Part shown: positions 24,326 through 46,938 of the stretch, in pieces
How positions within the stretch are numbered: the first letter of the stretch is position 1
Layout of the letters: each line of letters starts with the position of its first letter
Assembly: GCA_043767805.1 (NCBI GenBank)
Contig: JAYUGC010000134.1
Coordinates: 1-57,697 of the forward strand
DNA: 57,697 bases
Direction of reading: 5' to 3'
Source: Pseudomonadota bacterium
GTDB taxonomy: Bacteria; Bdellovibrionota; FAC87; UBA2466
Made by a program: the position numbers and the translations under genes
Notes under the pieces: generated by a model
Databases searched by the model: none
Seen by the model: only the letters and a program-made list of their open reading frames with translations
Told to the model about the DNA's origin: nothing

Positions 24326-24356
24326 CGCGCTCTAGTGTATCACGCAGAACGGACCG

Positions 24357-24449: not shown

Positions 24450-24457
24450 TTGGCGGG

Positions 24458-30589: not shown

Positions 30590-30600
30590 GAAGAAGAAAA

Positions 30601-30687
30601 AGCATGAGATCGAGAATGAGAATTAGTTGGGAATTTTTCTCCGAAAACTCATTCTGATTCTCGATCTCATTCTCATTCTCTCATTCT
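30601..30687. repeat. Palindromic hexamer repeat element, copy 3 (opposite orientation to copy 2)
   Basis: AGCATGAGATCGAGAATGAGAAT...ATTCTGATTCTCGATCTCATTCTCATTCTC. Its loop reverse-complements to GAGTTTTCGGAGAAA, as in copy 2. Confidence 0.85.
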
Positions 30688-31584
30688 TAAGCACTTCCAC
30701 CCCCGCGGCTGAAAGCGAGCGAGCGCCCGATCCGCATCCCGAGTCGCGAGAAAGTTCGGCGGCTCCCAGGGCGTCGGCGCGGACGGGCTAAGCGGGTCCG
30801 CAAGGGTCGGCCCAAGAAACGTTTTCTCCAGCCGAAACAAACGAAACCCCAACTCCTCGAGGTAACGCGTTGCCGGCGTGGGCAAGGCGGCATTCTCCTC
30901 GAACACGAGGTCACGAACAGCGCCCGAGCGGAGTAGCTTTTCTCCGCCGCGATAAACGTTGAGCTCTGCCCCTTCGACATCAATCTTGATGATTTGAGGC
31001 GTCGTTTCGCTCGTGAAATACTCGTCCATGGGCCTGACTTCGACCTGAATGCTCGGGCCCAAGGCACCCTCGGCCCGCGTTTCCTTCAGATAAGCGATTC
31101 CGGAATTCGCGCCCATCTCCGCCGGGAGCACGAGCTCCGCCTGACCATTTCGATCGGAGAGAGCAATTTTTTCGACCACGAGCTCCGCGACATGGGCCCG
31201 GGTTCTCCAACGTTTCACGTTTTGATCGAGCTGAGCGTAAATCTCAGGCATCGGCTCGAAGGAAGTCACTTTCCCTCTATCAGTGAGGCGACGAGCAAGG
31301 AGCGAGGTCATATGCCCAACATTTGCCCCGATATCGGCCGCGCGCTCGCCCGGATCGGCCAAGCGCCAAAGCGCTTCGCTCACCATCAAATCGTAAAGTC
31401 CCAGGCGCCACACCGCCATGCCAATGGTCTCGTCCACGTGCACGTCGATATCGAGGTCCCACGGCAGCTCCATCCGCCGCAAGCGCCCGTCATGGGGCAC
31501 GATGCGCCGTTGGAGACGCTTAAATATCTGCACGGGGCGAAAGAAATACTCCGGCTTATTGAGCGAGGCTCGCCAGTCTCTCAC
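30673..31584 (-). CDS. FkbM-family methyltransferase
   Basis: ADIGANVG, SFEP and IKIDVEGAE. GTG start overlaps the upstream stop (GTGA), with a GAGGGAG SD. Confidence 0.88.
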   Translation of the reverse strand: MRDWRASLNKPEYFFRPVQIFKRLQRRIVPHDGRLRRMELPWDLDIDVHVDETIGMAVWRLGLYDLMVSEALWRLADPGERAADIGANVGHMTSLLARRLTDRGKVTSFEPMPEIYAQLDQNVKRWRTRAHVAELVVEKIALSDRNGQAELVLPAEMGANSGIAYLKETRAEGALGPSIQVEVRPMDEYFTSETTPQIIKIDVEGAELNVYRGGEKLLRSGAVRDLVFEENAALPTPATRYLEELGFRLFRLEKTFLGPTLADPLSPSAPTPWEPPNFLATRDADRALARFQPRGWKCLRMRE

Positions 31585-32741
31585 TTCGCTCTCCCTCGAA
31601 GCTCGAGCCAAGCCGTCTCGCTCGCTTCCATCCAGTCCACCCATTGTTCGGCCATCTTCGCCCAGGTAAAAGACCGCAGGCTCGCTCCAAAATCCTGCAC
31701 GCGGCGGCGGGTCGCCTCGGGATCTTTCGCCCACGCTTCGAGCTGCCTGGCGAGAGCGGCGCTGTCATTGGGATCGTCGATGAGAAGATCGTCCAGCTCG
31801 GCCGGGTATCTCTCGGAAAAGCCCGCGCTTCTAGCCAAAAAACACGGCGTGCCCGAGGCAAACGCCTCTTGCGCCGCGAGCGAGTACGGCTCGTACCGGC
31901 TGGGCGCGGCTATAGCGTCACACGCCCAAAGTAGTTTCGGAATCTCTCGGTGGAAGCCCAGAAAATGCACGCGTTCCTCGAGCTTGTCGGCTTTGGTTCG
32001 TTCCTTCCAATGGGGCAACTCACGCCCCGCGCCCGCCACTAAAAGGACGGCGCCGTCCGGAAGCTTCGAGCAAAAGGAAGCCCAGGCGGTATAAAGCGAG
32101 TCGAACCCTTTGCGCAGATCGCCCAGGGCTCCGACGAAGCCGAGCACCGGCCCACTAGCGCTCACGCCCAAAGCTTCGCGAGCCGCGATCCGTTCCCCGT
32201 CAGACGGAGGCCGAAAGCGTTCCGGATCGGTGCCCAGCGCGATTACCTTGATCGATTCCCGGCGCAAGCCGAACAACCGAACGAGATCCTCGCGGTTTTT
32301 TTCCGCGGTGGTCACGATCATCTTCGCCTGTAAAAGCGCCCGGCGTTCCTCGGCGCGGAAGCGAGTGGCGCGCCAATCGTCCCAAGCTCTCGTCTTCGGC
32401 TCTTCATACGCCGCGTGTAAGTAGTGCACCCAGTTGACGTCGTTCCAGCGGCAGTTGCCGCCGTTGACGACGACTCTTCCCCTTTCAGCCGTCACCCGGG
32501 CCGCCCAATAGCGGCCCATCTGGGAGAGGAGTGGAAATCCCAAAAAGTAAGAGCCCAGGGGCTTTGCGACCGGATGAAAGCGAATGTTCGGATGGGACGT
32601 GAGATCTTCGGAAGCGGTGAAAGCGACCAAGTGCACAGGGTGGCCGCGCTCGGCGAGACGCAGCGCGAGAGCGTGGTTCGCCCAGTCCATGCCGCCAAAA
32701 CGGCCGAAGTCGCCCGTTACTAAAAGGTAAGGTCGTTTCAC
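31581..32741 (-). CDS. GT4 glycosyltransferase
   Basis: FVGALGDLRKG and PSRYEPYSLAAQEA. Confidence 0.88.
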   Translation of the reverse strand: MKRPYLLVTGDFGRFGGMDWANHALALRLAERGHPVHLVAFTASEDLTSHPNIRFHPVAKPLGSYFLGFPLLSQMGRYWAARVTAERGRVVVNGGNCRWNDVNWVHYLHAAYEEPKTRAWDDWRATRFRAEERRALLQAKMIVTTAEKNREDLVRLFGLRRESIKVIALGTDPERFRPPSDGERIAAREALGVSASGPVLGFVGALGDLRKGFDSLYTAWASFCSKLPDGAVLLVAGAGRELPHWKERTKADKLEERVHFLGFHREIPKLLWACDAIAAPSRYEPYSLAAQEAFASGTPCFLARSAGFSERYPAELDDLLIDDPNDSAALARQLEAWAKDPEATRRRVQDFGASLRSFTWAKMAEQWVDWMEASETAWLELRGRAK

Positions 32742-33844
32742 GCTTCTTTTCTCATTTCCACCGCGGCCGGCTCACCGAGCAGCCTCGTCACCACCGCGTC
32801 CCAGTCGAAATATTTTTCGAAGAGCCGTACTCCAATCCAAGCCCGCACTCGTCTAGCTTCGGGCGAAGCGAGCAGCGTCCGGATGGCCGCGGCAAAGGCG
32901 CCCGCCTCTCTCGGAACGAGCCAGGTGGCATCCGACTCGGTGAAAATGGGATCGGTGAGACGGCCCCAGTTCGTCACCACCGCAAGCTCGTGGGCGAAGG
33001 CGGCGATGGCCGACGTCCGCCGAGCCGAGACCCCATCGACAAAAGGCGCGAGAAAGACGTCGAGACGACCGAGCTCGCGAGACACTTCCGCTTCGGAGAG
33101 CGCGCCCGTGAATCTCCAGCGCGGATCGTCTTTGAACTTTCCCGGCCACTCGGCGCGCGTGATCCCAATCAAGACCAGCTCTGCGTTGATGGGTCCGAGG
33201 CGCTGCCACACCGCTTCGAGAAACTTCGGATCCTTTCCGGAGCCGAGCGGGCTGAAAACTCCGATGCGGGCTTTGCCGTCTTTGGCATGCCGCTCGCCCG
33301 CGGGCCGTATGGTCGAGCCGACCGGAGACCACACGACTTTGCCCTGAGCTCCCGGAAAATCCCGGCCGATCCATTCCGCCCAAGCTTGCACCGTCACCGG
33401 AACGCGATCGCTCGCGGTGATGAGGGCGGCGAGCGTGAGCCTTTGCCCGAGGGCGAGAATACCCGCTTTGCCCCAGCCCCAATCGACGAAAGGCTCATGC
33501 ACGTTCGTTTCCCAGCGAATGCCTTCCGCGCGCAGCCGCGCCGCCGCGAAGGCGGGCCACATATTCCAACCCCGGCGATGATAGAGAAACGGCTCCCACT
33601 GAAACCAGATTGCGTCGGGGCGTTCTTGCTTCGCTCGCTCTATGAGCTGAGTGAATCCGCGCCGGCTCCAATCCCTCATTCCATTCCACACGGGGACGCC
33701 GTCCAGCTGAGACGCTTGCTCGACGCCCGTCACGAGGGTGACCTCGTGCCCACGGCGAGACAACGCCTCGGCGATCCGCGCCGTGTAATCGCCCACTCCG
33801 CAACGGGCCGGAGGGATTCTTCGGGTGACGAGCCAGATCTTCAT
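32738..33844 (-). CDS. GT4-like glycosyltransferase
   Basis: PPARCGVGDYT N-terminal motif and PFVDGVSARRTSAIAA. Confidence 0.82.
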   Translation of the reverse strand: MKIWLVTRRIPPARCGVGDYTARIAEALSRRGHEVTLVTGVEQASQLDGVPVWNGMRDWSRRGFTQLIERAKQERPDAIWFQWEPFLYHRRGWNMWPAFAAARLRAEGIRWETNVHEPFVDWGWGKAGILALGQRLTLAALITASDRVPVTVQAWAEWIGRDFPGAQGKVVWSPVGSTIRPAGERHAKDGKARIGVFSPLGSGKDPKFLEAVWQRLGPINAELVLIGITRAEWPGKFKDDPRWRFTGALSEAEVSRELGRLDVFLAPFVDGVSARRTSAIAAFAHELAVVTNWGRLTDPIFTESDATWLVPREAGAFAAAIRTLLASPEARRVRAWIGVRLFEKYFDWDAVVTRLLGEPAAVEMRKEA

Positions 33845-33882
33845 TAAGAATAAAGGGGGGCTATATGAAGTATAATCCAGTT

Positions 33883-35001
33883 ATGCGAATGCTCCACTGC
33901 CATTCGGGCAACCTCTTCGGTGGGATTGAAAGAGCTCTCCTGGCCCTCGTCGCGGCGCCCAACACGGGGCTTACTTCGGAGTTTGCGCTCTGTTTCGAAG
34001 GCGCTTTCGCCAACGAGCTGAGAGCCGCGCGTTACAATCCTAAAATTCTGGGCCCAGTCCGCTTCCGCTCTCCTTTGAGCGTGTGGACCGCGCGCAAACG
34101 ATTCGCCAAGGCTATCGTCGAGAAAAAGCCGGATTGGGTACTAACGCATGGGCTTTGGTCCTTTCGTTTGGCTTACCCCGTGGCGAGACGGTGCGGCATT
34201 CCGATAGCCATCTGGGTGCACGACGTTTTTCAAGGGCACTCGTGGCTCGAGCGGCCTGGCCTCTACTCTCCCGATAAAATTTTCGCCACGAGTCAGTTCA
34301 CGGCTCAAGGCGTCCCGCGCGTTTTTCCGGGCCGCTGGCCCGAAGTGCTTCCGCCCCCGCTCGCCACTCGCGCCCCTGATGAATCGGCGAGAAGCCGCGT
34401 GCGAGCCGAGCTCGGAGCTTCCCGCGAAACCGTCGTCATTCTCATGGCAGGACGTTTCGAGCCCCTCAAAGGGCACGGCATGCTGCTAAAGACTCTGTCT
34501 CGGGTCGCAGTGAACGTACCGACCTCCATTCGCTGGTGCGTCTGGATCGCCGGTGACGCCCAGAGACCCGCGGAACGCCTTCTCAAAACCCAGCTCGAGG
34601 CCCAAGCCGAGGCCCTGGGAGGCCGCGTGAAGTTCTTGGGCCATCGCACGGATATCGCCGCGCTTTATTCCGCGGCCGACATCTATTGCCAGCCGAACGT
34701 CGGCCCCGAAGCGTACGGGCTCACTTTTGCGGAAGCAGCGGTAGGGGGCCTGCCCGTGGTCACCACCCGCCTGGGAGCGGGACCGGAGCTCGTCGACAAC
34801 GACATCGGGCGGCTCGTGCCGCCCTCCGATGAAATCGCCCTCGCCTCGGCCCTCACCGAGCTCGTCGGCTCCGCGGAATTGAGGCAGACACTCGGCGCCG
34901 AAGCCGCTCGGCGTGCCAAGCGCATTCCGGATGCGAGAGTCATCGCCAACCGTCTCGCCCATCATCTCCAAGGCGAGTACGTGAGCCGCTTGGCCGTCTG
35001 A
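33883..35001 (+). CDS. GT4 glycosyltransferase
   Basis: GNLFGGIE, GRFEPLKG and GPEAYGLTFAEA. TATAAT lies 6 nt before the ATG at 33883. Confidence 0.88.
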   Translation: MRMLHCHSGNLFGGIERALLALVAAPNTGLTSEFALCFEGAFANELRAARYNPKILGPVRFRSPLSVWTARKRFAKAIVEKKPDWVLTHGLWSFRLAYPVARRCGIPIAIWVHDVFQGHSWLERPGLYSPDKIFATSQFTAQGVPRVFPGRWPEVLPPPLATRAPDESARSRVRAELGASRETVVILMAGRFEPLKGHGMLLKTLSRVAVNVPTSIRWCVWIAGDAQRPAERLLKTQLEAQAEALGGRVKFLGHRTDIAALYSAADIYCQPNVGPEAYGLTFAEAAVGGLPVVTTRLGAGPELVDNDIGRLVPPSDEIALASALTELVGSAELRQTLGAEAARRAKRIPDARVIANRLAHHLQGEYVSRLAV

Positions 35002-35030
35002 ACCCTCTAGTCCGTGGTAAAATTATCCCC

Positions 35031-36215
35031 ATGCTTCCCAAGCTAAAGACCGCCCCGCGTCTGAAAGTTCTCTTTTTCGTAGAGGGCTTTACCGACATTC
35101 GCTTCGTCACGGGCCTTTCGGAAATTTGCGATCTCACGCTGGTGGTACCGCAAAGAGCATACGAATCGAGCGGCTTGAAAGAGCGCGTGAACGAGAGCGG
35201 CGCGACTCTCACCCAAATCGAGATCACCGGAAGCCGCCTTCAGTTTCAAGCCAAGAGCTTGAAATGGCTCTGGGACAACTCCGCTCACTTCGACGTCGTT
35301 CTCGCTCAAGAAGTCTTACGGGGCGCCTTCAACGCGACCCTCATTGGGAAATTAAAGGGGGTTCCCGTGGTCACCTACATGGGCATCTCGCCGGTCGAGT
35401 ACTTCCGCTGTCGACGAGAGCGCGGTCAAATTGGCGCGCTGAAAAGCTGGCTCGGAGAGACCACCATCGAGACTCTGATGCGCGCGAACGGACGCATGGC
35501 CACCACTTGCCTCGCTATGGGCCCCTACCTAAAAGACGTCGCCGCGGACTATTGCCCCCGGAGCCAGGTGGGGCTCTATTACGGCGTCGACACGAAATTT
35601 TTCCGTCCGGCGGCGGCCGCCGAAAAGAAGAAGCTGCGCGAAAAGCTCGGGCTTCCTCAAGACAAATTTTTGGTCGTGCTCTCCAGCCGCATCAGCCACG
35701 AGAAAGATCCCGAGACCGCATTGAAAGCCGTGGCGAAAGCCCGGGCCAAGGGACTCGATGTGGCGCTCCTCAATCTGGGAGGCGGGTTCAAGGATTTCCT
35801 CAAGCTCTCCAAAGAGCTGGGGCTTCCCGATGCGACCGACTGGGTCCTGGGCCGCCAAGCGGTACACCCCATGAAAGATCTCGCCGATTATTTCCGTGCG
35901 GCTGACTGCATGATTCAGGCGTCTCTCGCCGAAGGTGCGGCGTTCTCGACCCTCGAGGGGCTTGCCTGCGAAGTGCCAGTCATCGCCACCGACATCGGAG
36001 GCATGGCGGTCCAGCTCCGAGGCGTTGCGCATCTCACCCCGCGCGCCGACAGCGATCGCATGGCCGACAAATTACTCTGGGTCGCTTCCCACAAAGCCGA
36101 GGCGCAAAAGATCTCCACCGAGGGCCGCGCCTACGTGGTGCGGGAATGGGATCGGGAAAAGGCCTTCCGCGATCTCCAGATAATTCTCTCGGATGCCGCC
36201 AGCACCCGCCGTTAA
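35031..36215 (+). CDS. GT4 glycosyltransferase
   Basis: YYGVDT, SRISHEKD and ASLAEGAAFSTLEGLACEVP. Confidence 0.88.
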   Translation: MLPKLKTAPRLKVLFFVEGFTDIRFVTGLSEICDLTLVVPQRAYESSGLKERVNESGATLTQIEITGSRLQFQAKSLKWLWDNSAHFDVVLAQEVLRGAFNATLIGKLKGVPVVTYMGISPVEYFRCRRERGQIGALKSWLGETTIETLMRANGRMATTCLAMGPYLKDVAADYCPRSQVGLYYGVDTKFFRPAAAAEKKKLREKLGLPQDKFLVVLSSRISHEKDPETALKAVAKARAKGLDVALLNLGGGFKDFLKLSKELGLPDATDWVLGRQAVHPMKDLADYFRAADCMIQASLAEGAAFSTLEGLACEVPVIATDIGGMAVQLRGVAHLTPRADSDRMADKLLWVASHKAEAQKISTEGRAYVVREWDREKAFRDLQIILSDAASTRR

Positions 36216-36360
36216 TTCGCCGAAATTAGGCGACCTGCCGTTAACGACGCGTGCGGGAGGGAAAGATCTAATAGACTCCCTCGTACCGGCAACCCGTGTC
36301 CCGTGACTGCCCCGGTCGAGTGCGCGAAAGCGCGGGTCCGAAAGCACGAAAAAAAGCGCC

Positions 36361-36909
36361 TCACTTCTTCGTGACGAGATACACGCTGATCGTCGCCGTT
36401 ATGATGCCCAGAAACGTGGAGAAGATCGAAAGCGTTCGCATGAACGTGTCCACTTTCGGGGGAGAGTCGAGATGGATGACGTCTCCGTTGCGTAAAACCA
36501 TGTCGCGATAACTCACCTGCTCGACCAGCTCCTCGCCGTCGATGCGGACGGTTTTCTGATTCGCGGCGATCTTCGCATCCTTGCTCTCCCGGGTGTCGTA
36601 AATGCGGCTCAGTGAGATTTCCGTCTTGGAGAGAACGCCCGTGCTTCCACCGGAGTAACCGAGGGCATCGAGGAGCGTGGCATTGTCCGGCAGGTAGTAC
36701 ACGCCCGGCGCCGAGACATCCCCCCAGATGTGCACGCGGATCAAGAAACGCTTCTCACGGTTCGACGAGAAAAACTCTCGTACGTTGCCTTCCCCCTGCT
36801 CCTTCGGCGTGATGAGCACCGGCGCTCCGTGCGCGTAGCGGAGGGCTCCCGTATGAGAGACGATGAGAAGCGGCACGAGACTCTGAACTAACCAGCGTGG
36901 GGTTTTCAT
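36361..36909 (-). CDS. Small SLBB-domain polysaccharide export (OPX/Wza-like) protein
   Basis: VHIWGDVSAPGVYYLP...LLDALGYSGG...LRNGDVIHL SLBB fold, N-terminal signal-like segment and C-terminal hydrophobic helix. Confidence 0.8.
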   Translation of the reverse strand: MKTPRWLVQSLVPLLIVSHTGALRYAHGAPVLITPKEQGEGNVREFFSSNREKRFLIRVHIWGDVSAPGVYYLPDNATLLDALGYSGGSTGVLSKTEISLSRIYDTRESKDAKIAANQKTVRIDGEELVEQVSYRDMVLRNGDVIHLDSPPKVDTFMRTLSIFSTFLGIITATISVYLVTKK

Positions 36910-36970
36910 GGTGGTACCTTCATTTTAGCCTAAAGGCGCCGCCGTGAGATACCGCGCGCGGCGTTAACGC

Positions 36971-37915
36971 TCATCCGGCAAACGAACGGCTCATGGCGTA
37001 AGCGAGAGCCTCCCCAAACCGATCCCGCAAGAGCGCCTTCATTCCCAGGTACAGCACGCGAGGAGCGCGGTGTTTTTCTAAAATCAAACGCTCCGGCGAA
37101 AGAGACCGTTCGAGACATTTAGCGACGAGCCAGCCGCCCAGGCCGGCATGCCCGATCCCTTCGGGAACCGGCGTTCCGAAATGCCGCCTGAGCACGGCCG
37201 CCGAAACGGCGACCGCCCGGCGGAGCCTCAAGCGAATGGCGAGCCGCTCGACCGCGGCGACATCCAGGCCTTCCCGCCGGACGAGATGATCGAGATCCAC
37301 GAGCCAATGGAGCTGATCGAAGAGATGCTGAAGCGCCCCGTGCCCGCAGAGATAGACGAAGTTCAAGTTCGTCTCGAACTCGCGGAACCAGTCAACCTCA
37401 GGGATGCAGGAAGCGCGGCTGTGCCAGCGCGAGATGCCTTCGAAATCCCGGCCGGCGAGCATTTGCCGATGGCCTTCCACCGGGACCCCGTCCAGGACGA
37501 AGACCTGACGAAACTCCGTGCCGAGCCAGCTACCTGGATCGCCCGGCTCCGCGCCCAGCCCTTGAAGGACTCTCCCAAAATCACGCCAGCGGTGTTCCGA
37601 CACCAAAATGTCGATGTCCGTGCAGGGCCGGTGCAAGGGGGAATCGTAAATCCGGTAGGCGAGACTCGGCCCTTTCAAAAGCCAGGCCGGAAGCCCCGCC
37701 GCTTTGAACGCCTCATTCAATTTTTTCAAGACGCCGCGAAAAGTCACCTCGCGCACGGCGCGCGAACTCCAAGCTCGTCGACAAACGGCTTCGAGCTCCG
37801 TTCCTTCGACGCCTCCCTTGGCTAACGCCAAAGGACCGAAGGCGGCCGCCCCTTGCGGCGTGGCCAGCCAGTTCCGGAAGGCGGGAGTCCTCATCCAAGT
37901 TTCAAATGGTGTCAC
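36971..37915 (-). CDS. Nucleotidyltransferase (NTP_transf_5-like, RiPP-associated)
   Basis: LLKGPSLA..IY....RPCTDIDILV motif, VEGH and WLVDL. Confidence 0.85.
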   Translation of the reverse strand: MTPFETWMRTPAFRNWLATPQGAAAFGPLALAKGGVEGTELEAVCRRAWSSRAVREVTFRGVLKKLNEAFKAAGLPAWLLKGPSLAYRIYDSPLHRPCTDIDILVSEHRWRDFGRVLQGLGAEPGDPGSWLGTEFRQVFVLDGVPVEGHRQMLAGRDFEGISRWHSRASCIPEVDWFREFETNLNFVYLCGHGALQHLFDQLHWLVDLDHLVRREGLDVAAVERLAIRLRLRRAVAVSAAVLRRHFGTPVPEGIGHAGLGGWLVAKCLERSLSPERLILEKHRAPRVLYLGMKALLRDRFGEALAYAMSRSFAG

Positions 37916-38348
37916 GCCGGACGTTCCCTCTTCCTAGCTGCAGAGCCATTTCGATTAAAGCGAGCGCCTTCAGGCCGACGCGAGCGGGTCGTCCTTTCGG
38001 GCCCGCGCGCATGCGGCGGGAAAACCAGGCCGACCAACGTTTGAGCCCCGGCCCGCGCTCGCCCCACACCACCCGCCAAGCGCCACGCCGAACTCCCAAA
38101 ACCCGGCCCACGAGCGGCGAAGGGGGATCCCATTCGCAAGCCGCGTCTCCTTTGGTGGCGAGCCCGCCGCCCTTGCCCACCACCCGGTGCGCGGACCAAA
38201 CTCGATTGCCTTCGAGGCGGAACGGGCCGGTAACGACCAGGTCCCCTTCCCCTACGAGCGGCGAGTCGCCGAGCTCGACGAGCAAAGCGTCTCCAGGCTT
38301 CAGGAAAGGCACCATGCTCTCACCATGAAAAGAGACCCAGGTAGGCAT
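37902..38348 (-). CDS. Soluble S24/S26-family peptidase (candidate leader peptidase)
   Basis: GESMVPFL (catalytic Ser), SAHRVV and TKGDA. The ATG overlaps the precursor stop (TAATG); no N-terminal TM anchor. Confidence 0.82.
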   Translation of the reverse strand: MPTWVSFHGESMVPFLKPGDALLVELGDSPLVGEGDLVVTGPFRLEGNRVWSAHRVVGKGGGLATKGDAACEWDPPSPLVGRVLGVRRGAWRVVWGERGPGLKRWSAWFSRRMRAGPKGRPARVGLKALALIEMALQLGRGNVRRDTI

Positions 38349-38527
38349 TAGGAGAGAAGTCGGTTGGAGCGACAGAAGTTGGGAGCCCCGAGCGATTCCT
38401 TGCGTCCCCCAACCAAGGAACCGTTGCAGGTGATGGCGGCGCCGTTGACCATCCACTTCTCCGAAACAATCTTCGGCTTCTCGTAAGGAATTTTCTCGGG
38501 CTTCTTGTCTTTGGGGTCGTCGCTCAT
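38348..38527 (-). CDS. Putative RiPP precursor peptide, 59 aa (absent from the ORF track)
   Basis: Manual translation: MSDDPKDKKPEKIPYEKPKIVSEKWMVNGAAITCNGSLVGGRKESLGAPNFCRSNRLLS*. GAGGAG SD, ATGA overlap with the rSAM stop, TAATG overlap with the peptidase start, and a YxxPxI RRE-binding motif. Confidence 0.88.
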   Translation of the reverse strand: MSDDPKDKKPEKIPYEKPKIVSEKWMVNGAAITCNGSLVGGRKESLGAPNFCRSNRLLS

Positions 38528-39555
38528 GCTGTAGTCTCCTCGAAAACTTGGGCGCGGATTTTCGCCGCTTCCGCCGCGTAAGGAATCACTTTCAAAGGAT
38601 CGCGAAGCTCATTTCTCGCCATGCCGGGACAATGCTCGCAAAGGCCGGCGGCGTTGCCCTTCGGCATGCCCGACAAATCGCCGAGTCTCAGATCTCTCCA
38701 TTTGAGTGCGATCTCATTTCCCCAGAGCTCGGCGAAAGACGATTCCGTGAGAAGCCCGAGCGGCTCCCGCACTTCAATGCAGGGGAGCAGCTCTCCGTAG
38801 GCGGTGACCGCGCACTTCGCCTTTCCGACGCCGCAGGTATGGTGCTCGAGCGTAGTCGCCTCGGGCTCGCGAGCCCGCCCCGCTCGCCTGGCCTGCTCAC
38901 GATAGTAGACGAGAAGCTGTTCCGGAGTCGCTCTCTGGCGAGTCGGCGCCATATCGCCGCTGAACTTCGCGGTGACCACGGGATCGGCTTGCATGGGAAG
39001 CGATCGCTCCGCGCACCAGGCTTCAAGATCGAAGTAGCCGTCGATATTTTCCCGGGTGAGCAAAGTATTGATGGTCACGCCGAGGCCCGCCTCTTTGGCG
39101 AACTCGATGGCCCGCACCAGACGGGCATGGGAGCCCGCGACCGCGGTCATCCGATCGTGCACGGCCGAGTCGGTGCTATAGAGACTGATGGTCAGATAAG
39201 AAAATCCCGTTCGCTTCAAACGAAACGCGGCCGCTCGATCTATTTTCAAAGCGTTGGTGATCATCGACAACGAGAAGCCCAGCCCCGCCGCATACTCGGC
39301 GATGGCCCAAAACTCCGGGTGGAGCATGGCTTCGCCGCCCATCAAGACGACGTAGAGCACTCCCGCGCCGCGAATTTCCCGTAGGACATGCTTCCACTGA
39401 TCCAGAGTAAGCTTTCGCTCGGGATCGTCTTTAAACGAGTCGAGATAACAGTGCGTGCAACGCTCGTTGCAGCGATAAGTAAGCTCCAGGGAAGCCTTCA
39501 TGGGTCTTGCCTTGAGGAGACTGTGATCTCCCCATTTGTCGAGCAAGGCGCTCAT
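38524..39555 (-). CDS. Radical SAM enzyme with SPASM/twitch-type C-terminal domain (PqqE-like)
   Basis: ELTYRCNERCTHCY (CxxxCxxC), MGGEA, CGVGKAKC...GELLPC and CEHCPG. Confidence 0.93.
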   Translation of the reverse strand: MSALLDKWGDHSLLKARPMKASLELTYRCNERCTHCYLDSFKDDPERKLTLDQWKHVLREIRGAGVLYVVLMGGEAMLHPEFWAIAEYAAGLGFSLSMITNALKIDRAAAFRLKRTGFSYLTISLYSTDSAVHDRMTAVAGSHARLVRAIEFAKEAGLGVTINTLLTRENIDGYFDLEAWCAERSLPMQADPVVTAKFSGDMAPTRQRATPEQLLVYYREQARRAGRAREPEATTLEHHTCGVGKAKCAVTAYGELLPCIEVREPLGLLTESSFAELWGNEIALKWRDLRLGDLSGMPKGNAAGLCEHCPGMARNELRDPLKVIPYAAEAAKIRAQVFEETTA

Positions 39556-39824
39556 TCGGCTACTTCCACCAGCCCCAACTCTTTCAATTCCATTTCAAAG
39601 GCGAGCATGTCGGCCGAGGCGGTCGCTTCATCCACGTCAAAGGTTTCACTCAGGCGCCGAATGAGAGTCTCGCGAGGGAGCTGCCCATCGAGCCGCTCCC
39701 AAATCCAGGTTCCCGCGCGGTTGCACTCATGAACGAGATCGCGCCCGGGATTGAGTAAGACAGCGACTCCTTCGAAGGTCTGCCACCCCACGCCGAGCGC
39801 GCGCTTCAAGCCGTATTCAGCCAT
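39552..39824 (-). CDS. PqqD-family RiPP recognition element (RRE)
   Basis: 90 aa; AVLL...HECNRAGTWIWERLDG...LSETFDVD.ATASADM..F...L...GLV. Confidence 0.9.
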   Translation of the reverse strand: MAEYGLKRALGVGWQTFEGVAVLLNPGRDLVHECNRAGTWIWERLDGQLPRETLIRRLSETFDVDEATASADMLAFEMELKELGLVEVAE

Positions 39825-40704
39825 CGATGACCCTCCAAAAATCCGCGTCTCTGCGAAACGAAAGCTCGAAGCCCGGCACTTGGCGCACGAGCTGCACCAA
39901 GCGCTCCATCAAAGCGGAAGCTAACGACGAGTCGGAAAGTAAGAACGTGTGCACGAGCGCCCGGGCGAGTTCGCCCGGGCCGAGCGCGCGCACCTGCACT
40001 TCACTGGATTGCCGGAGCCAATAAAACCCCGCGAGCGGCGCCGGCTTATCGATTCTATCCCTGTCAAAGCGCGCCTGGCCGAGCAGCGCCGGCTCGACGG
40101 TGGCGCCGAGCTCTCCCACCCGGATCAAATTAATGTCGTCTCCCAAAACCACGCGGTTTCCGGCAAACGAAGCGATGGTGGATTTCCCCGCGCCGGAGTG
40201 GCCGAGAAACACGTGCGCCCTTCCGTCATTCCCGATCACGGCCGCCGAATGCGCCACGAGCGCGCCCCGAGAGAGCAACGCGGGAGGCAGAAACCAGCGG
40301 AGCGCATTGAAGAGCCCATCGGAGCTGTCGGCCTTCGCCGCAATCACCGCTTCGCGCGGGCTCAAACGGCGCGCGACGAAATCGCGCTGGAGCACCATAT
40401 CGCCACGCACTTCAAAGCCCGGATCGGGATCTTCGTCGAACTCGACGTCGCCTCCGGTCCAGAGGCGATGAGCGTCCTGCCAATGGAGCGAAAGCGCCGG
40501 CTCGGCCTCGCGAAGCCAAGCCATCGGTAAACGTCCCCGCGCGAACTCGAGCGAGGCCCGGTGGTCGAAGGCAAAACGGAGGGGCACGCCATGATACAGG
40601 CAATAAAAATGCGGCGCGGACCCGAGCGGCGTCAGGTGCTGCGCGAGCTTGCGCTTACCCGGGCGAGAGGACGCTTCGGGAAGTCGAATAATTTCCGGCA
40701 CCAA
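39817..40704 (-). CDS. HprK-related kinase (P-loop; ScmC/PadeK-like)
   Basis: AHSAAV, GHSGAGKSTIA (Walker A) and VLGDD motifs of the HPr-kinase superfamily. Start is TTG 40704 or GTG 40701. Confidence 0.8.
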   Translation of the reverse strand: MVPEIIRLPEASSRPGKRKLAQHLTPLGSAPHFYCLYHGVPLRFAFDHRASLEFARGRLPMAWLREAEPALSLHWQDAHRLWTGGDVEFDEDPDPGFEVRGDMVLQRDFVARRLSPREAVIAAKADSSDGLFNALRWFLPPALLSRGALVAHSAAVIGNDGRAHVFLGHSGAGKSTIASFAGNRVVLGDDINLIRVGELGATVEPALLGQARFDRDRIDKPAPLAGFYWLRQSSEVQVRALGPGELARALVHTFLLSDSSLASALMERLVQLVRQVPGFELSFRRDADFWRVIDG

Positions 40705-40790
40705 ACCATTATAGGCGGGGCGGGCTCAAGATACTAATGCGACGCATCACACACCTTCATCCCAAACCGTTTTTAAGCCGAAACGTAGGG

Positions 40791-41846
40791 GTGAGGACCC
40801 AGTTAATATCATGGATCTTAATCGCGCTGCCAACGTGGGCTCACGCCCGCGAGCCCTCGATTTCCGACTGGATCGCCCATCTTGGTCTCGATTCTTGTGC
40901 CACCCACTACCCATCGCTCATGCCCTCGAGCCCGCTGGCGGAAGCCGTTCGTTCTTCCTGGGGCGGGAAAAAGCATTTACCGCTCGATCCCGAAATTGAA
41001 ATCTTACGGCGGGTAAACTTCGAGGATTGGGCGCAAATTCCTAGCAGCTCTCGCCAGAGGCTCTTCGGCGATGAGAGCATCAAGGCCTGGCAGAACGCCA
41101 AGCAGTTTGCCGAAGCTCACGCAAGCGACGCGGAACTCGGGCCGGATCTACTGAAAAAAATGCATTTGCTCGCCCTCGAAGGTCATTACTTCGCCGGTTA
41201 TGAGCGGCGCCGGATCCAGCACGCCACCCAGCAAGGAAAACTTTCCGCCAGCGCGGGCATGAAACTTCTCGAGGAAATAAAGGAAGGGCAAAAGCCCCTT
41301 CCTTCCGGAACCGATCACAGAAGTCTGCGGGGCGTTTTTCGCAAAGATCCTTTGGATGCTTTCGTGCAAAACGGCAGGCATGTCCTTCCCAACGGCTCCC
41401 GCTATTTTACAGCGTCCGAGTTGGCTCAGATCAGGAAAAACCCGTTCTTGAAAGTGGACGAGGGCTCCTTCAAGGACATCGGCGAAGGCAGGTTTACCGG
41501 CAACGTCCATTTCGTAGCTCCCGCGGAATTGGAAAAAGCCGTGAACAGCGTCTTCAAAACTCTCGAGACGGATCTCAAGGGCGCCAAAGACGATCTAGCC
41601 AAGATAAGCGCCATCGTCCGGTTCCGAAGAGAGATGCTTACCATCCATCCGTTCCTGGACGGCAACGGCCGCTCGATACGGCTCTTTGCGGACTTGCTCT
41701 ACTTACGCCATGGCTTTCCGCCGCCGCTGACGTTTCACGAGAACGATCTCATCATCAGCCAGGAAGAGGATGTGAAGAGCACGTTAATCGGAATGCAACT
41801 CTACCTGATGGCTCTCGATAAAAAGGCCTCTACCGAAAAACGCTAA
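40791..41846 (+). CDS. Fic-domain protein with a predicted signal peptide
   Basis: Canonical motif HPFLDGNGRSIR. From GTG 40791 the N-terminus reads MRTQLISWILIALPTWAHA/RE (AxA site); alternative start at 40737. Confidence 0.85.
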   Translation: MRTQLISWILIALPTWAHAREPSISDWIAHLGLDSCATHYPSLMPSSPLAEAVRSSWGGKKHLPLDPEIEILRRVNFEDWAQIPSSSRQRLFGDESIKAWQNAKQFAEAHASDAELGPDLLKKMHLLALEGHYFAGYERRRIQHATQQGKLSASAGMKLLEEIKEGQKPLPSGTDHRSLRGVFRKDPLDAFVQNGRHVLPNGSRYFTASELAQIRKNPFLKVDEGSFKDIGEGRFTGNVHFVAPAELEKAVNSVFKTLETDLKGAKDDLAKISAIVRFRREMLTIHPFLDGNGRSIRLFADLLYLRHGFPPPLTFHENDLIISQEEDVKSTLIGMQLYLMALDKKASTEKR

Positions 41847-43104
41847 TCAGCCCCTTCGGCTTACTTTTTCCGAGAGTAAGTACGGACTCTTTGCCGGGCT
41901 GGAAAATCCGCGCGGCCATGGCTTGTACCGAATCGGGAGTCACCCCTTCGATTTCGCGCACGATCTCCTCAACCGACAGATAGCGGCCGAACACGAGCTC
42001 GTTCCTACCGATGGACTCTTGCCGGGAATCCATCTCATCGGCCGCGAGCAGCACGGCCCCCTTAAGCTGTCCCTTCACCATCTCGAGATCTTTTTCCTCG
42101 AGCGGAGTTTCCACGAGGCGCAGAAGCTCTTTGGAGAGAATATCCATGCACTTGCCAAGCGATCGCGGCGAGGTATTCAGATACACGTCGAAAATCCCCG
42201 TGTCCGAGAACGAGATGCAATCGCAGTCGATGGAGTAAGCAAGCCCCGCCTTTTCGCGAATTTCCTGAAAGAGCCGGCTGCTCATCCCGCCGCCCAAGAA
42301 AAAGCTCACCATCAGGAGATCGAAGCGCCCCGTATCGCGAAAGCCCAGGCCTTCGAAACCGAGCAGCAGATGCGTCTGCTCGGTGGGCGCGCTGAGATGC
42401 CGGCGCTTCGATTGAAACTTGGGCCGTTTGGATTTTAGCGGCTTACCTTTTGGCGACGGTCCGAAGGCAAAGAGCCGCTCCACCGTTTCTCGCACCTGGT
42501 CGAACTCCACATTGCCGGCGACACTCAAGACCATGTTGTCGGGCCGGTAGTGCTGCTTGAAGTATTTGTAGAGCTGGTTACGGGTCGTTGCGAGAATGTT
42601 TTTGCGGTTTCCGATGACGGGAACGCCGAGCGGATCATCTTTCCAGACCGTTTGAAGATAGAGGTCGAGAATGCTGTCATCCGGGGCGTCTTCCAAAACG
42701 GAGAGCTCGTGGATGAGCACTTTCTTCTCGCGCTCGACTTCGTCTTTCGGAAAAGTCGCGTGAATGACCAGATCGGAGAGCACGTCGAGCGCGTTCTCCA
42801 GGTGCTCCGCGAGAACTGTCGCGTGATAGCAGGTATATTCCTTGTCTGTGAAGGCGTTGAGATCCCCGCCCAAGCGCTCCAACGAAGTCGCGATTTCCAG
42901 AGGAGTGCGAGTCGCGGTCCCTTTGAAGAGCATGTGCTCGACGAAGTGACTGTAACCCGCCTCTTTGATCTTCTCGAACCGGCTTCCCATGCGCACCCAG
43001 GCGCCGACGGAAACGCTGCGCACGCGCGCGTGTTTCTCGACCACGAGAGCTAGGCCGTTAGGAAGCGTATATTTCTTGAATTCCGGAGCGGGAAAATCCC
43101 ACAT
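41830..43104 (-). CDS. M16 (pitrilysin-like) zinc peptidase
   Basis: HFVEH inverted zinc motif, LNAFTDKEYT and GGGMSSRLFQEIRE; usual position after pnp. Confidence 0.93.
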   Translation of the reverse strand: MWDFPAPEFKKYTLPNGLALVVEKHARVRSVSVGAWVRMGSRFEKIKEAGYSHFVEHMLFKGTATRTPLEIATSLERLGGDLNAFTDKEYTCYHATVLAEHLENALDVLSDLVIHATFPKDEVEREKKVLIHELSVLEDAPDDSILDLYLQTVWKDDPLGVPVIGNRKNILATTRNQLYKYFKQHYRPDNMVLSVAGNVEFDQVRETVERLFAFGPSPKGKPLKSKRPKFQSKRRHLSAPTEQTHLLLGFEGLGFRDTGRFDLLMVSFFLGGGMSSRLFQEIREKAGLAYSIDCDCISFSDTGIFDVYLNTSPRSLGKCMDILSKELLRLVETPLEEKDLEMVKGQLKGAVLLAADEMDSRQESIGRNELVFGRYLSVEEIVREIEGVTPDSVQAMAARIFQPGKESVLTLGKSKPKGLISVFR

Positions 43105-43112
43105 GGGACGTT

Positions 43113-45446
43113 TCAGCGACCGCCGCGGAAGCCTCCGCCGCCGCCTCCGCGTCCACCGCCACCGCCGCGTCCGCCGCGATCTCCGCCGCCGCCACGACCA
43201 CCACGGAAGCCACCGCCTCCGCCGCTGCCGCCACGACCGCCGCGATCTCCACCGCCGCTACCGCCGCCGTATCCGCCGCCGCCTTCACCGCGGCCACCGC
43301 CACCGCCCTGGTCTTCCGACCCAGGAGGCGGTCCTTCCGAACCGTCATTGGGGAGGAGCGCTTTGCGGGATAGACGAATCTTGCCCTGAGGATCGACCTC
43401 GAGACATTTCACCTGAACGATGTCGCCTTCTTTGACGATGTCGTCCACCTGGCGGACCCGGTAATGGGCCAGCTCTGAAATGTGGCAAAGGCCATCCGTT
43501 CCGGGAATGATTTCGATGAACGCACCGAAATCGGCGATACGGGTAACCCGGCCTTCGTAGATTTTGCCTGGCTCGGGCTCTTCCGTGATCTGGTTGATGA
43601 TGTTCATCGCCTTCTGCGCGCTTTCGCCGTCAGAGGAAGCGATGTGAATCGTGCCGTCGTCTTCGATATCGATCTTAACGCCCGTGCGCTCGATGATGCT
43701 GCGAATAACCTTACCGCCCGACCCGATGACTTCGCGGACTTTGTCCGGGCGCACTTTCATGGTGAAGATGCGCGGCGAGTACTTGGAGAGCTCCGGCTGA
43801 TGCACGGAGATGGTTTTCGCCATCTCGCCGAGAATATGGAGCCGGCCTTCTTTAGCTTGGTCGAGGGCTTGTTCCATAATCTCGCGGCTGACGCCCGCGA
43901 TCTTAAGATCCATCTGGAACGCGGTGATACCGTCCGCCGTTCCGCACACTTTGAAGTCCATGTCTCCGAGATGATCCTCGTCGCCGAGAATGTCGGAAAG
44001 AACGGCGACTTTATCGCCTTCCTTGATGAGCCCCATCGCTACGCCCGCGACGGGCTTGGTAATCGGAACGCCGGCATCCATTAGCGCCATGGAACCGCTA
44101 CATACGGTCGCCATGGAAGAGGAGCCGTTCGACTCGAGGACTTCCGCCACCAAGCGAATGGTGTAGGGGAAAACTTCTTTCGACGGCACTACGTAGGAAA
44201 GCGCGCGCTCGGCGAGAACGCCGTGGCCGATTTCCCGGCGCCCTGGCGGCCGAAGCGGACGGGCTTCACCCACCGAGAACGGGGGGAAGTTGTAGTGCAG
44301 GAGAAACGTCTTCTGATACTGCCCGGCCAAAGCGTCAATCTTCTGCTCGTCGTCTTTGGTGCCGAGGGTAACCGTCGACAAGACTTGAGTCTCACCGCGC
44401 GTAAAGAGCGAGGAGCCGTGCACGCGGGGCAAGAGGCGGACTTCGCTCGAGATGGGGCGAATCTTGTTGTAAGCGCGTCCGTCGATGCGGGCTTTCGTAT
44501 CCAAGGTGAGCTCACGGGCGAAAGTCGCCTTCAGCTCTTCGAGGTACGTGCTAACGAGCTTGTTACGCGCGTTGTCTTCCGCCGTCTTGGGCTCGGCATT
44601 GGCGAACTTTTCCTTCGCGAGTTTCTTCACTTTATCGAGTGCGTTGTAACGCTCGAGTTTTTCGCGAACCGCGAAGGCGGTTTTGAAGGAAGGCCAGAGA
44701 GCCTCCTTCATTTTCGCCTTCATCGACTCGTCCCGAAGCGGCTTCGGGTAATCGCGCTTGGCCTTATTGCCGGTCTTGGCGCGCAAATCTTCCTGGAGCT
44801 GGAGAATGGGCTGAATCGCCTTGCGAGCGAACTCGAGGGCGTCCACCATTTCTTTTTCGGAAACTTCTTTAGAGAGGCCTTCCACCATCACGATGCCGTC
44901 TTTGATACCGGACACGATGATGTCCAACCGGCTGTCGACCAGCTGCTCGGGCGTCGGATTGGCGATGTACTGGCCATCGATGAGACCGATGCGCAGGCTT
45001 CCCACGGGACCCGCGAACGGAATGTCCGACATGTGCAGACAAGCCGAGGTGGCGATAGAGCCGAGAAGGCCGGGCTCGTTCACTCCGTCGTGAGACAGAA
45101 TGGTCACGGTCACGTTCGTCTCGTGCATGTAATCTTCAGGAAAGAGCGGCCGCATGGGCCGGTCGATAAGCCGTGCGGTGAGTGCCGCCATATCTGGCGG
45201 CTTCGCTTCGCGCTTGAAGAACCCGCCGGGGATACGGCCCGCGGCGTAAAACTTTTCTTGGTAGTCTACCGTGAGGGGGAAGAAATCCTGATTTTCCTTG
45301 GCGGTCTTCGCGGAGCAAATCGCGACGAGGACTGCGGTCTCACCACAACGGGCGAGAATGGACGCGTCGGCCTGCTTGGCCATCTTCCCGGTCTCAAGCG
45401 TTAATACACCTGCCCCGTAATCGACACTTAGTTCAATGACAGACAT
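43113..45446 (-). CDS. pnp: Polyribonucleotide nucleotidyltransferase with a Gly/Arg-rich tail
   Basis: FFPLTVDY, RREIGHG, SNGSSSMA, EDHLGDMDFKV, KH and S1 domains. Confidence 0.98.
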   Translation of the reverse strand: MSVIELSVDYGAGVLTLETGKMAKQADASILARCGETAVLVAICSAKTAKENQDFFPLTVDYQEKFYAAGRIPGGFFKREAKPPDMAALTARLIDRPMRPLFPEDYMHETNVTVTILSHDGVNEPGLLGSIATSACLHMSDIPFAGPVGSLRIGLIDGQYIANPTPEQLVDSRLDIIVSGIKDGIVMVEGLSKEVSEKEMVDALEFARKAIQPILQLQEDLRAKTGNKAKRDYPKPLRDESMKAKMKEALWPSFKTAFAVREKLERYNALDKVKKLAKEKFANAEPKTAEDNARNKLVSTYLEELKATFARELTLDTKARIDGRAYNKIRPISSEVRLLPRVHGSSLFTRGETQVLSTVTLGTKDDEQKIDALAGQYQKTFLLHYNFPPFSVGEARPLRPPGRREIGHGVLAERALSYVVPSKEVFPYTIRLVAEVLESNGSSSMATVCSGSMALMDAGVPITKPVAGVAMGLIKEGDKVAVLSDILGDEDHLGDMDFKVCGTADGITAFQMDLKIAGVSREIMEQALDQAKEGRLHILGEMAKTISVHQPELSKYSPRIFTMKVRPDKVREVIGSGGKVIRSIIERTGVKIDIEDDGTIHIASSDGESAQKAMNIINQITEEPEPGKIYEGRVTRIADFGAFIEIIPGTDGLCHISELAHYRVRQVDDIVKEGDIVQVKCLEVDPQGKIRLSRKALLPNDGSEGPPPGSEDQGGGGGRGEGGGGYGGGSGGGDRGGRGGSGGGGGFRGGRGGGGDRGGRGGGGGRGGGGGGFRGGR

Positions 45447-45502
45447 AGGTTTCCTTTTTCAATTTTCGATGGCAACGAAGGGCGGCAAAAAGACCGCAGC
45501 CG

Positions 45503-45772
45503 TTACTTTCTGATGTTCAATTTTTCGATGATCGCCTGGTACCGACTGACGTTGACCTTCTTCAAGTAGTCGAGAAGCCGTCGCCGGGTTCCGACCATCT
45601 TGAGAAGACCACGACGGGAGTGGTGGTCCTTCATGTGGCTCTTGAAATGGGGGGTCAAGGAGTTGATCCGCTCCGTCAAAAGCGCGACTTGGACTTCGGG
45701 AGACCCGGTGTCATTGGCGTGAACGGCGTGGGTCTTGATCAGCTCGTTCTTTTTTACCTTCTGGAGACTCAA
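45503..45772 (-). CDS. rpsO: 30S ribosomal protein S15
   Basis: [13 protein letters not shown] and [17 protein letters not shown] start with an AGAGG SD. Confidence 0.97.
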
Positions 45773-45793
45773 GGTTACCTCTGTTTATCCTTA

Positions 45794-46576: not shown

Positions 46577-46938
46577 CCGGCCGCTCCCGAAGAAGGATCA
46601 GCCGATCCCACTCTTTCCAATAGTCCGAGAATATTATTCAGCTCGTCGGTGTGGGTATCCACTTCGAATACAAGCTCGGGGACCTGACGAAGACTCAGGT
46701 TCCGGCCGATGACCCGGCGAAAGAACGGGAGGGCGCGCACGATGCCCTTACCAATTTCTTTAATGTCGCCGAAACCGGGATGGAAGAACACTTTCGCGTG
46801 CTTCAAATCCGACGATAGCTCGACTTCCGTGATGGTGATGCCACGGACCTGAGGGTCCGCGATGTCTTCCACCAGAAGGCGCGCGATCTCCGACTGAATG
46901 AGGGACGCGACCCGGTTATTGCGACGAGGAGATGCCAT
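46573..46938 (-). CDS. rbfA: Ribosome-binding factor A
   Basis: RVASLIQSEIA, DPQV, TITEVELSSDLKHAKVF and LRQVPELVF; follows infB. Confidence 0.93.
   Translation of the reverse strand: MASPRRNNRVASLIQSEIARLLVEDIADPQVRGITITEVELSSDLKHAKVFFHPGFGDIKEIGKGIVRALPFFRRVIGRNLSLRQVPELVFEVDTHTDELNNILGLLERVGSADPSSGAAG

Follow-up and report, generated by a model that had tools for sequence, protein, structure and literature searches.

The stretch of DNA analysed here (the window; 57,697 nt, contig JAYUGC010000134.1 of the Bdellovibrionota assembly GCA_043767805.1) carries on its minus strand a 59-codon open reading frame (ORF) at 38348..38527. An earlier sequence-only reading had proposed this ORF as the hidden precursor of a peptide that is made on the ribosome and modified after translation (RiPP), and the comparative sequence data presented here support that proposal. 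We consider it likely that this frame is gene A, the precursor gene, in a RiPP cassette of six genes, whose other members encode a kinase, a PqqD-type RiPP recognition element (RRE), a radical SAM/SPASM enzyme, a signal-peptidase-like protease and an NTP_transf_5 nucleotidyltransferase, enzymes that would act in the pathway set out below (Table 1).

Conservation of the 59-codon reading frame

Translation of 38348..38527 on the minus strand returns exactly the 59 residues that had been quoted for the precursor, at the place given for it. As the same reading had described, the ORF fills the gap between the radical SAM stop and the peptidase start. Its ATG (38527-38525) shares bases with the radical SAM TGA (38526-38524) in an ATGA overlap, its TAA (38350-38348) shares a base with the peptidase ATG (38348-38346) in a TAATG overlap, and a GAGGAG Shine-Dalgarno sequence lies 8 nt upstream. 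Purine-rich stretches resembling Shine-Dalgarno sequences also precede the chosen starts of six out of six homologous peptide ORFs. Since 129 ORFs of at least 40 aa overlap 30000..47000, a single ORF of such size is unremarkable, and the case for a gene therefore rests on conservation.

A collection of 5.8 billion proteins contains three 59-aa proteins with 90, 88 and 81% identity to the peptide (three of three candidates). When the gene is compared with its syntenic orthologue in a genome of the same genus (G001), 42 of 180 bases differ, distributed 9, 7 and 26 over the first, second and third codon positions. The codon changes comprise 22 synonymous and 10 non-synonymous ones, and the GC content at third positions is 0.75-0.80. 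Judged by this pattern of substitution, the 59-codon frame is a real gene under purifying selection. The four sequencing runs listed for 36900-40800 all come from a single study and are of DNA, with no RNA run among them.

A peptide family with a leader motif, two cysteines and a terminal Ser or Thr

In loci fetched around radical SAM relatives, tblastn with the peptide detected diverged counterparts (34-48% identity) in G004, G020, G035, at a second locus of G001 and, within the window's own genome, on contig C23, and such homologues adjoin radical SAM paralogues in six other loci. An alignment of 10 peptide sequences keeps M1, Y15, P18, A31, C34, N35, G36, R42, K43, C52 and S59. The profile built from these 10 sequences matched 70 proteins at E<=1e-3 among 1.84 billion cluster representatives, 29 of them at <=1e-10, and 65 of the 70 are 47-105 aa long. 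The remaining proteins, P0004, P0037, P0041, P0065 and P0067 (208-3464 aa), match only via C-N-G-like repeats or tandem copies and were excluded from the family. Together with P0001 and P0002, the 65 small matches give the 67 small members counted here.

The sequence-only reading had proposed that YxxP, Cys and the terminal Ser would be kept in orthologous peptides, and this is what the family displays. The motif [YF]xxP occurs in all 67 members (Y in 64, F in 3), exactly two Cys are found in 64, and the C-terminal residue is Ser in 45, Thr in 20 and another residue in 2 (S/T in 65/67). The last Cys stands 7 residues (46 members) or 5 residues (17 members) before the C-terminus, and the first Cys opens the sequence CNGT in 29 members, CNGS in 14 and CNGM in 7.

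Column statistics were taken from alignment A3 (n=61), which holds the window's peptide, P0001-3, the six locus peptides and 51 of the 65 small matches, members with long insertions or extensions having been left out. P18, C34 and C52 are invariant across the 61 sequences and the final residue is S/T in every one. Leader columns are Y/F15 (61/61), I/V20 (54/61), S/T22 (56/61) and E23 (54/61). These are followed by a small-x-small site with A/G/S/T at position 29 (50/61), a bulky residue at position 30 and A/G at position 31 (56/61). Core columns comprise N35 (53/61), G36 (57/61), S/T37 (44/61), G40 (51/61), R42 (52/61) and K43 (59/61). No Pfam model matches the window's peptide, and NCBIfam gave no meaningful model match for any of 21 peptide members. 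Together, these alignments delineate a peptide family with an invariant [YF]xxP leader motif, two near-universal Cys and a terminal Ser/Thr.

The peptide travels with the same five enzymes

In the window the six genes all lie on the minus strand in the order kinase, PqqD, radical SAM/SPASM, peptide, peptidase, NTP_transf_5. Paralogous loci are arranged divergently, with the radical SAM and PqqD genes on one strand and those for the kinase, peptide, peptidase and nucleotidyltransferase on the other. The M16 peptidase and polynucleotide phosphorylase genes upstream of the window's cassette, as well as a Fic gene, were considered as further members and ruled out, being absent from the paralogous loci.

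When the peptide profile was run over 401 genomes of the phylum, 50 genomes gave a match, representing 32 of 204 genera. Out of 54 places found, 7 in genomes already studied and 7 weaker or second places were dropped, and 6 kb were fetched on each side of the 40 that were kept. This sample was thus chosen by the peptide alone; its loci come from related genomes, and the counts are accordingly not independent. The kinase is present in 38 of the 40 loci, the radical SAM enzyme in 37 (counted at >=150 bits to profile A4), the peptidase in 36, PqqD in 35 and NTP_transf_5 in 31 by phmmer or 35 by clustering. Peptides of these loci end in S (38) or T (2). Two loci lack all of the enzymes, one of them truncated by the end of its contig. 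The enzyme set persists through at least four gene orders. On these genome comparisons, the five enzymes accompany the peptide across many gene orders, and the cassette is common in Bdellovibrio-type bacteria.

A second scan, anchored on the radical SAM enzyme in one-per-species genomes, kept 79 loci. The nearest belongs to a metagenome-assembled genome of Bdellovibrionales (49% identity); many Terriglobia/Acidobacteriota follow at 29-34%, then Omnitrophota, Nitrospirota and others. Single-sequence searches of these 79 loci identified the kinase in 46, PqqD in 28, and the peptidase, the nucleotidyltransferase and a profile-matching peptide in 22 each. The acidobacterial peptides follow the pattern KKPYxKPxFxxERVFETMALxCGK...C....S, having the leader motif, two Cys and terminal Ser as in the window.

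The window's own genome also contains a second, diverged full cassette (L013; G000:C23:4000-14000) in the divergent order, with a 38% identical peptide at L013:2598-2765 (-). This cassette is followed by a reading frame longer than 1532 aa, which continues past the end of the fetched DNA and gives no match to Pfam.

Table 1. Features of the precursor gene, its predicted parts and the surrounding cassette, in window coordinates.
Feature	Coordinates	Strand	Evidence
P-loop kinase, PEPCK/HprK fold, 295-aa ORF from TTG; true start possibly a few codons downstream	39817..40704	minus	AlphaFold2 (AF2) model, P-loop
Discrete PqqD-family RRE, 90 aa	39552..39824	minus	Pfam PqqD 7.7e-14
Radical SAM enzyme with reduced SPASM/Twitch-like C-terminal domain, 343 aa, no fused RRE	38524..39555	minus	Pfam Radical_SAM 9.6e-25, SPASM 2.3e-5
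Shine-Dalgarno GAGGAG	38536..38541	minus	read from sequence; end 8 nt upstream of peptide ATG
Precursor peptide gene, 59 aa + stop	38348..38527	minus	sequence, conservation, linkage
Predicted leader, residues 1-31; Lys-rich N-terminus; [ST]22-E23; G29-A30-A31 site	38435..38527	minus	A3 column statistics; cleavage site inferred
Y15-E-K-P18-K-I20 RRE motif, within leader	38468-38485	minus	A3 column statistics
Predicted core, residues 32-59 = ITCNGSLVGGRKESLGAPNFCRSNRLLS	38351..38434	minus	A3 conservation
Cys34	38426-38428	minus	within predicted core
Cys52	38372-38374	minus	within predicted core
Ser59	38351-38353	minus	within predicted core
Candidate leader peptidase, 148 aa; soluble serine protease, signal-peptidase-I-like, of ER/archaeal (SEC11/SipW) type	37902..38348	minus	motif and profile matches
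NTP_transf_5 nucleotidyltransferase, 314 aa; start overlaps peptidase end by 14 nt	36971..37915	minus	Pfam PF14907 1.5e-30
SLBB-domain polysaccharide-export protein, co-directional, 62 nt downstream; cassette membership doubtful	36361..36909	minus	Pfam SLBB 5.9e-7

A proposed maturation pathway

By inference from the lasso peptides and from the linear polyphosphorylated peptide (LPP) pathway of Bacillota, the RRE would bind the leader at Y15-x-x-P18-x-I20 and present the peptide to the enzymes. The sequence-only reading had likened YxxP to the RRE recognition motif of lasso-type leaders, and the neighbouring PqqD protein is of the lasso-B1/LppB type by profile. Searched against solved structures, a profile of 24 RRE homologues matched TbiB1 (2.8e-16), PbaB1 (9x90_B; 2.3e-11), TfuB1 (5.9e-10), LppB (9x8z_B; 4.4e-9) and PqqD (4.3e-8), while a single-sequence search of PDB returned nothing significant (best E 0.49). 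Structure prediction of the RRE with the peptide scored 0.51, the best of 3 controls scoring 0.00, with runs agreeing in at least 90% of contacts and a partner pLDDT of at least 51. The mark applied to such scores is passed by 116 of 157 solved complexes and by 2 of 215 mismatched pairs; scores of 0.60 or less include only 18 of the 157 solved pairs together with both passing mismatches, and, complexes like this one being already solved, the pass possibly reflects memory. The prediction lends weak support to binding of the leader at Y15-x-x-P18-x-I20.

The radical SAM enzyme is expected to modify the Cys-containing core. Its motif C29-x3-C33-x2-C36 is the canonical CxxxCxxC and is invariant. 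The C-terminal domain contains only 5 Cys (241, 248, 259, 306, 309) as against 7 in acidobacterial relatives, and the Cys pattern of residues 236-322 differs between clades. In the window's clade there are 5-6 Cys and the CxxC is lost, another clade of Bdellovibrionota has 6-7 with ...C-x-R-S-S-G, and the acidobacterial relatives retain the full 7-Cys SPASM pattern. Because only 5 of these Cys are present instead of the full 7, the sequences suggest a single auxiliary cluster in the window's clade. The AF2 model (pLDDT 96) has SuiB, SkfB, MoaA, PqqE, anSME and CteB as its top Foldseek matches, and as modelled the enzyme is nearest to the peptide maturases SuiB, SkfB and CteB. By analogy, the modification would most likely consist of intramolecular thioether links from Cys34 and Cys52, with which the presence of two invariant Cys agrees.

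The kinase would then be the candidate for phosphorylating a Ser hydroxyl, most likely that of the C-terminal Ser59. Its P-loop, G-x-S-G-A-G-K-[ST], is invariant in 20 homologues. The AF2 model (pLDDT 91) aligns with PEPCK in VIA-align at Z 14.0 (root-mean-square deviation, rmsd, 5.3; 261 residues aligned), and its residues 147-295 align with four HprK/P structures at Z 9.4-10.1 (rmsd 3.1-3.4; 115-120 aligned), unrelated rows reaching Z <=5.1. Among the best 50 Foldseek matches listed PEPCK alone was found, HprK/P being seen with VIA-align. The sequence-only reading had invoked PadeK-type kinases; the likeness to HprK/P lies mainly in the fold, and sequence matches to HprK families fall far below their cut-offs. 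All public relatives of the kinase are named 'hypothetical protein'; most relatives among P0073-P0137 carry a precomputed match to Pfam PF27840.1. Ser59 is favoured as the phosphorylation site because a terminal S/T is universal and lies at a fixed distance from Cys52, while position 37 is S/T in only 44 of 61 members. The nucleotidyltransferase may in turn extend the Ser phosphate.

Finally, the Ser-His peptidase, assisted by the RRE, would remove the leader just ahead of Cys34, probably after Ala31, leaving a core of ~28 residues. The peptidase lacks an N-terminal membrane segment and is of the Ser-His ER/archaeal type, with S11, M12, P14, G19, H54, R55, G67 and D68 invariant in 21 homologues. 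Searched as a profile, it matches SEC11C/SEC11A best (2.2e-11), bacterial SPase I and LexA scoring lower; the NCBIfam model sigpep_I_arch matches at 1.5e-4, under its cut-off, and a single-sequence search of PDB gave nothing significant (best E 0.88). Small-x-small is the pattern of type I signal-peptidase sites, and because it occurs at positions 29-31, as a conserved small-bulky-small site, the cut would fall after Ala31 and the core would start at Ile32, where the sequence-only reading had guessed it. This assignment is tentative because LppS, the corresponding LPP peptidase, cuts at F-E-T instead.

Relation to known peptide pathways

The LPP pathway was described from clusters of the form lppA-K-B-S-D-N, which often lie inside capsule loci (Popov et al., Nat Commun 2026; PMC13381572). 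There LppK polyphosphorylates Ser3 of the core, LppS has the catalytic residues S29/H68/D93 and needs LppB for cleavage, and LPP and paeninodins are called Bacillota-restricted; 'radical', 'rSAM' and 'SPASM' do not occur in the text available to our term search. With four enzyme types and a YxxP leader in common, the cassette is, on gene content, a cousin of the LPP pathway and closest to it among the systems compared. Shared features are a discrete lasso-type RRE (the cassette's profile matches LppB), an SpI-like Ser/His/Asp leader peptidase (S11, H54 and D68 here) and an NTP transferase (PF14907 here), together with a P-loop kinase that is putatively HprK-like; LppS, LppK and LppN are likened by description and the kinase by fold, its sequence matches lying far below cut-offs. 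The YxxPx[VI] leader motif and a position in or beside polysaccharide loci are also common to both. The cassette differs in its radical SAM/SPASM gene, present in the window's operon and in 37 of 40 loci, and in its short, conserved core with two invariant Cys and a terminal Ser/Thr, LPP cores being variable. From the LPP consensus YxxPxVLxHQxIxFETxxS only YxxPx[IV] is found here; HQxIxFET is absent and the remainder reads x-[ST]-E-x-L...[AG]-x-x-C. There is no MsbA-like pump in the window's cassette, which belongs to Bdellovibrionota and has relatives in Acidobacteriota and other phyla, in contrast to the stated restriction of LPP to Bacillota.

Lasso peptide clusters share the YxxP motif (67/67 members here) and the RRE type, the profile being nearest to TbiB1. 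According to the available text of PMC8498205, the C-terminal Ser of paeninodin is phosphorylated, and the nucleotidyltransferase of pseudomycoidin adds one or two hexoses to the phosphate. The cassette resembles these two systems in its B1-type RRE, its kinase predicted to act on the C-terminal Ser, its NTP_transf-type enzyme that may decorate the phosphate, and its YxxP leader. HPr kinase is mentioned only for lasso clusters in the available part of PMC4289311. Pfam and NCBIfam matches of 11 ORFs around the peptide include no Asn-synthetase-like cyclase (C) and no transglutaminase-like B2 cysteine protease; a serine peptidase and a radical SAM enzyme stand in place of B2 and cyclase. Likeness to sactipeptide and ranthipeptide systems (SkfB, CteB) lies in the SPASM/Twitch radical SAM enzyme, its close fold and the short Cys-containing core. 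Unlike in those systems, the RRE is separate and not fused, the core has only two Cys, the window's clade has fewer SPASM Cys, and the gene set also includes a kinase, a nucleotidyltransferase and a signal-peptidase-like protease. The sequence-only reading had pointed to lasso-type leaders and to sacti/ranthipeptides; in gene content LPP stands nearer to the cassette than either.

Haft's orphan cassettes SynChlorMet (ScmC/D/E/F) and GeoRSP (NCBIfam TIGR04248-04251, TIGR04302-04303) likewise combine a PqqD homologue with a radical SAM/SPASM enzyme, and ScmC is kinase-like; their models give the best NCBIfam matches in their class, all of them weak. Scores against the curated cut-offs were 17/125 for ScmC, 25.5/100 for ScmD, 70/400 for ScmE, 101/400 for the GeoRSP radical SAM enzyme and 22/100 for the GeoRSP PqqD; with matches 4- to 7-fold below the cut-offs, membership was ruled out. 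A PQQ or mycofactocin type was also rejected, the radical SAM enzyme scoring 87.7 against a PqqE cut-off of 381 and 92.6 against 265 for MftC. Full-text literature searches returned no description of a cassette of radical SAM enzyme, HprK-like kinase and signal peptidase, and in the literature searched we found no description of a peptide combining crosslinks with phosphorylation.

Genomic surroundings

The cassette adjoins an exopolysaccharide locus (~17598-36909) with nine GT4 and two GT2 genes, a Wzx-like flippase, a 690-aa Wzz, an FkbM methyltransferase and the SLBB export protein, whose gene is the first of the locus; the synteny of cassette and locus is kept in G001. Within the locus, a 507-aa ORF (25849-27372) has no Pfam match and has relatives near the cassettes L130, L131 and L166. 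Exopolysaccharide-like genes lie within 6 kb of the peptide in only 14 of the 40 other loci. A protein of ~2000 aa with a C-terminal Peptidase_C25 (gingipain-type) domain stands beside the cassette in 27 of these loci (L127-L166), and flanking ABC-2 permease and ABC ATPase genes occur in 20 and 19 of them; examples of flanking genes are L153:6167-12169 (-), L129:1397-2335 (+) and L162:738-2006 (+). The window's copy has no adjacent C25, ABC-2 permease or ABC ATPase gene, and its own genome has five C25 matches on other contigs. The recurrence of polysaccharide and surface-protease neighbours hints at a role at the cell surface.

Upstream of the cassette, between the kinase and M16 peptidase genes, is a Fic-domain ORF (40737-41846, +) with a hydrophobic signal-like N-terminus, which is absent at the syntenic G001 locus and has weak NCBIfam matches, far under cut-offs, to Fic-type secreted effectors. 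The polynucleotide-phosphorylase-like ORF at 43113-45446 (-), identified by reading its sequence, has a Gly/Arg-rich tail of ~75 residues with GGRGG-type repeats.

Alternative explanations

Several observations weigh against the cassette and pathway as we read them. There is no exporter in the window's cassette and no ABC transporter among the ORFs of 35.5-47 kb. Searched against PDB, the peptide profile detected neither LppA nor lasso leaders, its best match (E 1.2) being a chance one to p63/p73. The best structural match of the kinase is PEPCK and not HprK/P, the NCBIfam models HprK_rel_A/B and ScmC match it at E ~2e-3, far under their cut-offs (125-200 bits), and Pfam Hpr_kinase_C is matched by 1 of 20 homologues. 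In the LPP pathway, as given in the available text of PMC13381572, LppK phosphorylates Ser3 of the core and not a C-terminal Ser, which makes Ser37 an alternative site here; LppS cuts after Thr (-1) with Phe at -3, not at A-x-A; and the nucleotidyltransferase LppN was inactive in the heterologous host. The radical SAM enzyme has only 5 of the 7 usual SPASM Cys, and its structural neighbours include enzymes for C-C links, epimerisation and oxidation, so that the thioether is only the commonest precedent and not a result.

It is scarcely credible that the ORF arose by chance and that its DNA is either spacer that is not translated or the 5' end of an extended peptidase gene with GTG 38456 as its start. 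Short ORFs are plentiful in this GC-rich DNA, as the count over 17 kb illustrates, and an overlapping 184-aa GTG frame (37902..38456) that would extend the peptidase is indeed present. However, the differences from G001 concentrate at the third codon positions of the peptide frame, and over the same DNA the 184-aa frame is about half identical to G001 against 83% for the peptide frame (a hand count from translations). Peptidase homologues lack the N-terminal extension, their first residues standing only a few positions ahead of the G-x-S-M-x-P box, and throughout the phylum peptides with as little as 35-40% identity still lie next to these enzymes. The conservation of the sequences already contradicts a chance ORF. 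Granting a real precursor, the radical SAM enzyme could instead make no Cys thioethers and catalyse epimerisation, oxidation or a C-C/C-N crosslink at Arg42-Lys43, the Cys serving as a disulfide or metal ligand. We regard this as somewhat unlikely, though the strongest of the competing explanations. Lys43 (59/61) and Arg42 (52/61) are conserved nearly like the Cys, the top fold match SuiB forms a Lys-Trp link, EpeE is an epimerase, and the reduced SPASM Cys set speaks against the assumption of a standard sactisynthase. Yet no core residue other than the two Cys is invariant in the 61 members, SkfB and CteB, which are thioether synthases, lie just as near in structure, and there is no conserved core aromatic for a streptide-type link.

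A real precursor could also be phosphorylated after the LPP pattern, the kinase (poly)phosphorylating a Ser/Thr close to the N-terminus that cleavage gives the core (Ser37 in C-N-G-S), and the terminal Ser/Thr serving otherwise, for example in partner recognition or in later processing or attachment. LppK acts only on core Ser3 and LppS cleavage depends on that phosphorylation (PMC13381572, available text), position 37 is S/T in 44 of 61 members, and an SpI-type peptidase is common to the cassette and LPP and not to paeninodin clusters. We nevertheless hold this to be unlikely, a little more so than a different radical SAM chemistry: 17 of 61 members have a residue other than S/T at position 37 (Met in 8), the terminal S/T is found in 61/61 with fixed spacing from Cys52, and lasso-cluster kinases act on the C-terminal Ser (PMC8498205, available text). 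Less probable again is that the peptide is a cell-surface part rather than a free product, its phosphorylated terminal Ser being a sugar handle that ties it to the polysaccharide locus, or else a partner of the giant C25-protease surface proteins. The cassette runs into the SLBB gene and the polysaccharide locus with synteny kept in G001, and the ~2000-aa C25 protein recurs beside it in 27 of 40 loci. In Bacilli, LPP and paeninodin clusters are likewise situated in capsule loci and LppN seemingly needs an outside partner (PMC13381572, available text), while the pseudomycoidin nucleotidyltransferase puts hexoses on phosphate (PMC8498205, available text). Against this, only 14 of 40 loci have exopolysaccharide-like genes within 6 kb and GT4 genes are common in any case, no C25 gene adjoins the window's copy, and adjacency is no evidence for a shared product. 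In its widest form, which we rate as a long shot, the idea would make the cassette a RiPP class not yet recognised, belonging to predators and soil bacteria of the Gram-negative kind and producing a radical-SAM-crosslinked peptide with a Ser-phosphate sugar handle, tied to exopolysaccharide or C25 proteins, and not a free antibiotic. If true, a surface polymer primed or capped by a peptide would be a new role for RiPP machinery, and it would account for kinase/nucleotidyltransferase peptide cassettes in the polysaccharide loci of unrelated phyla.

Significance

The precursor gene provides a substrate for an orphan radical SAM/kinase cassette and opens its pathway to direct tests. The family to which it belongs is common, occurring in 50 of 401 sampled genomes of the phylum, and has no name in the curated libraries searched; related two-Cys, Ser-terminated peptides are found in Acidobacteriota. 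The tailoring toolkit of LPP and lasso peptides (RRE, kinase, nucleotidyltransferase and signal-peptidase-like protease) reaches beyond Bacillota and is here joined to radical SAM chemistry. If the pathway proposed here is right, its product would be both crosslinked and phosphorylated.

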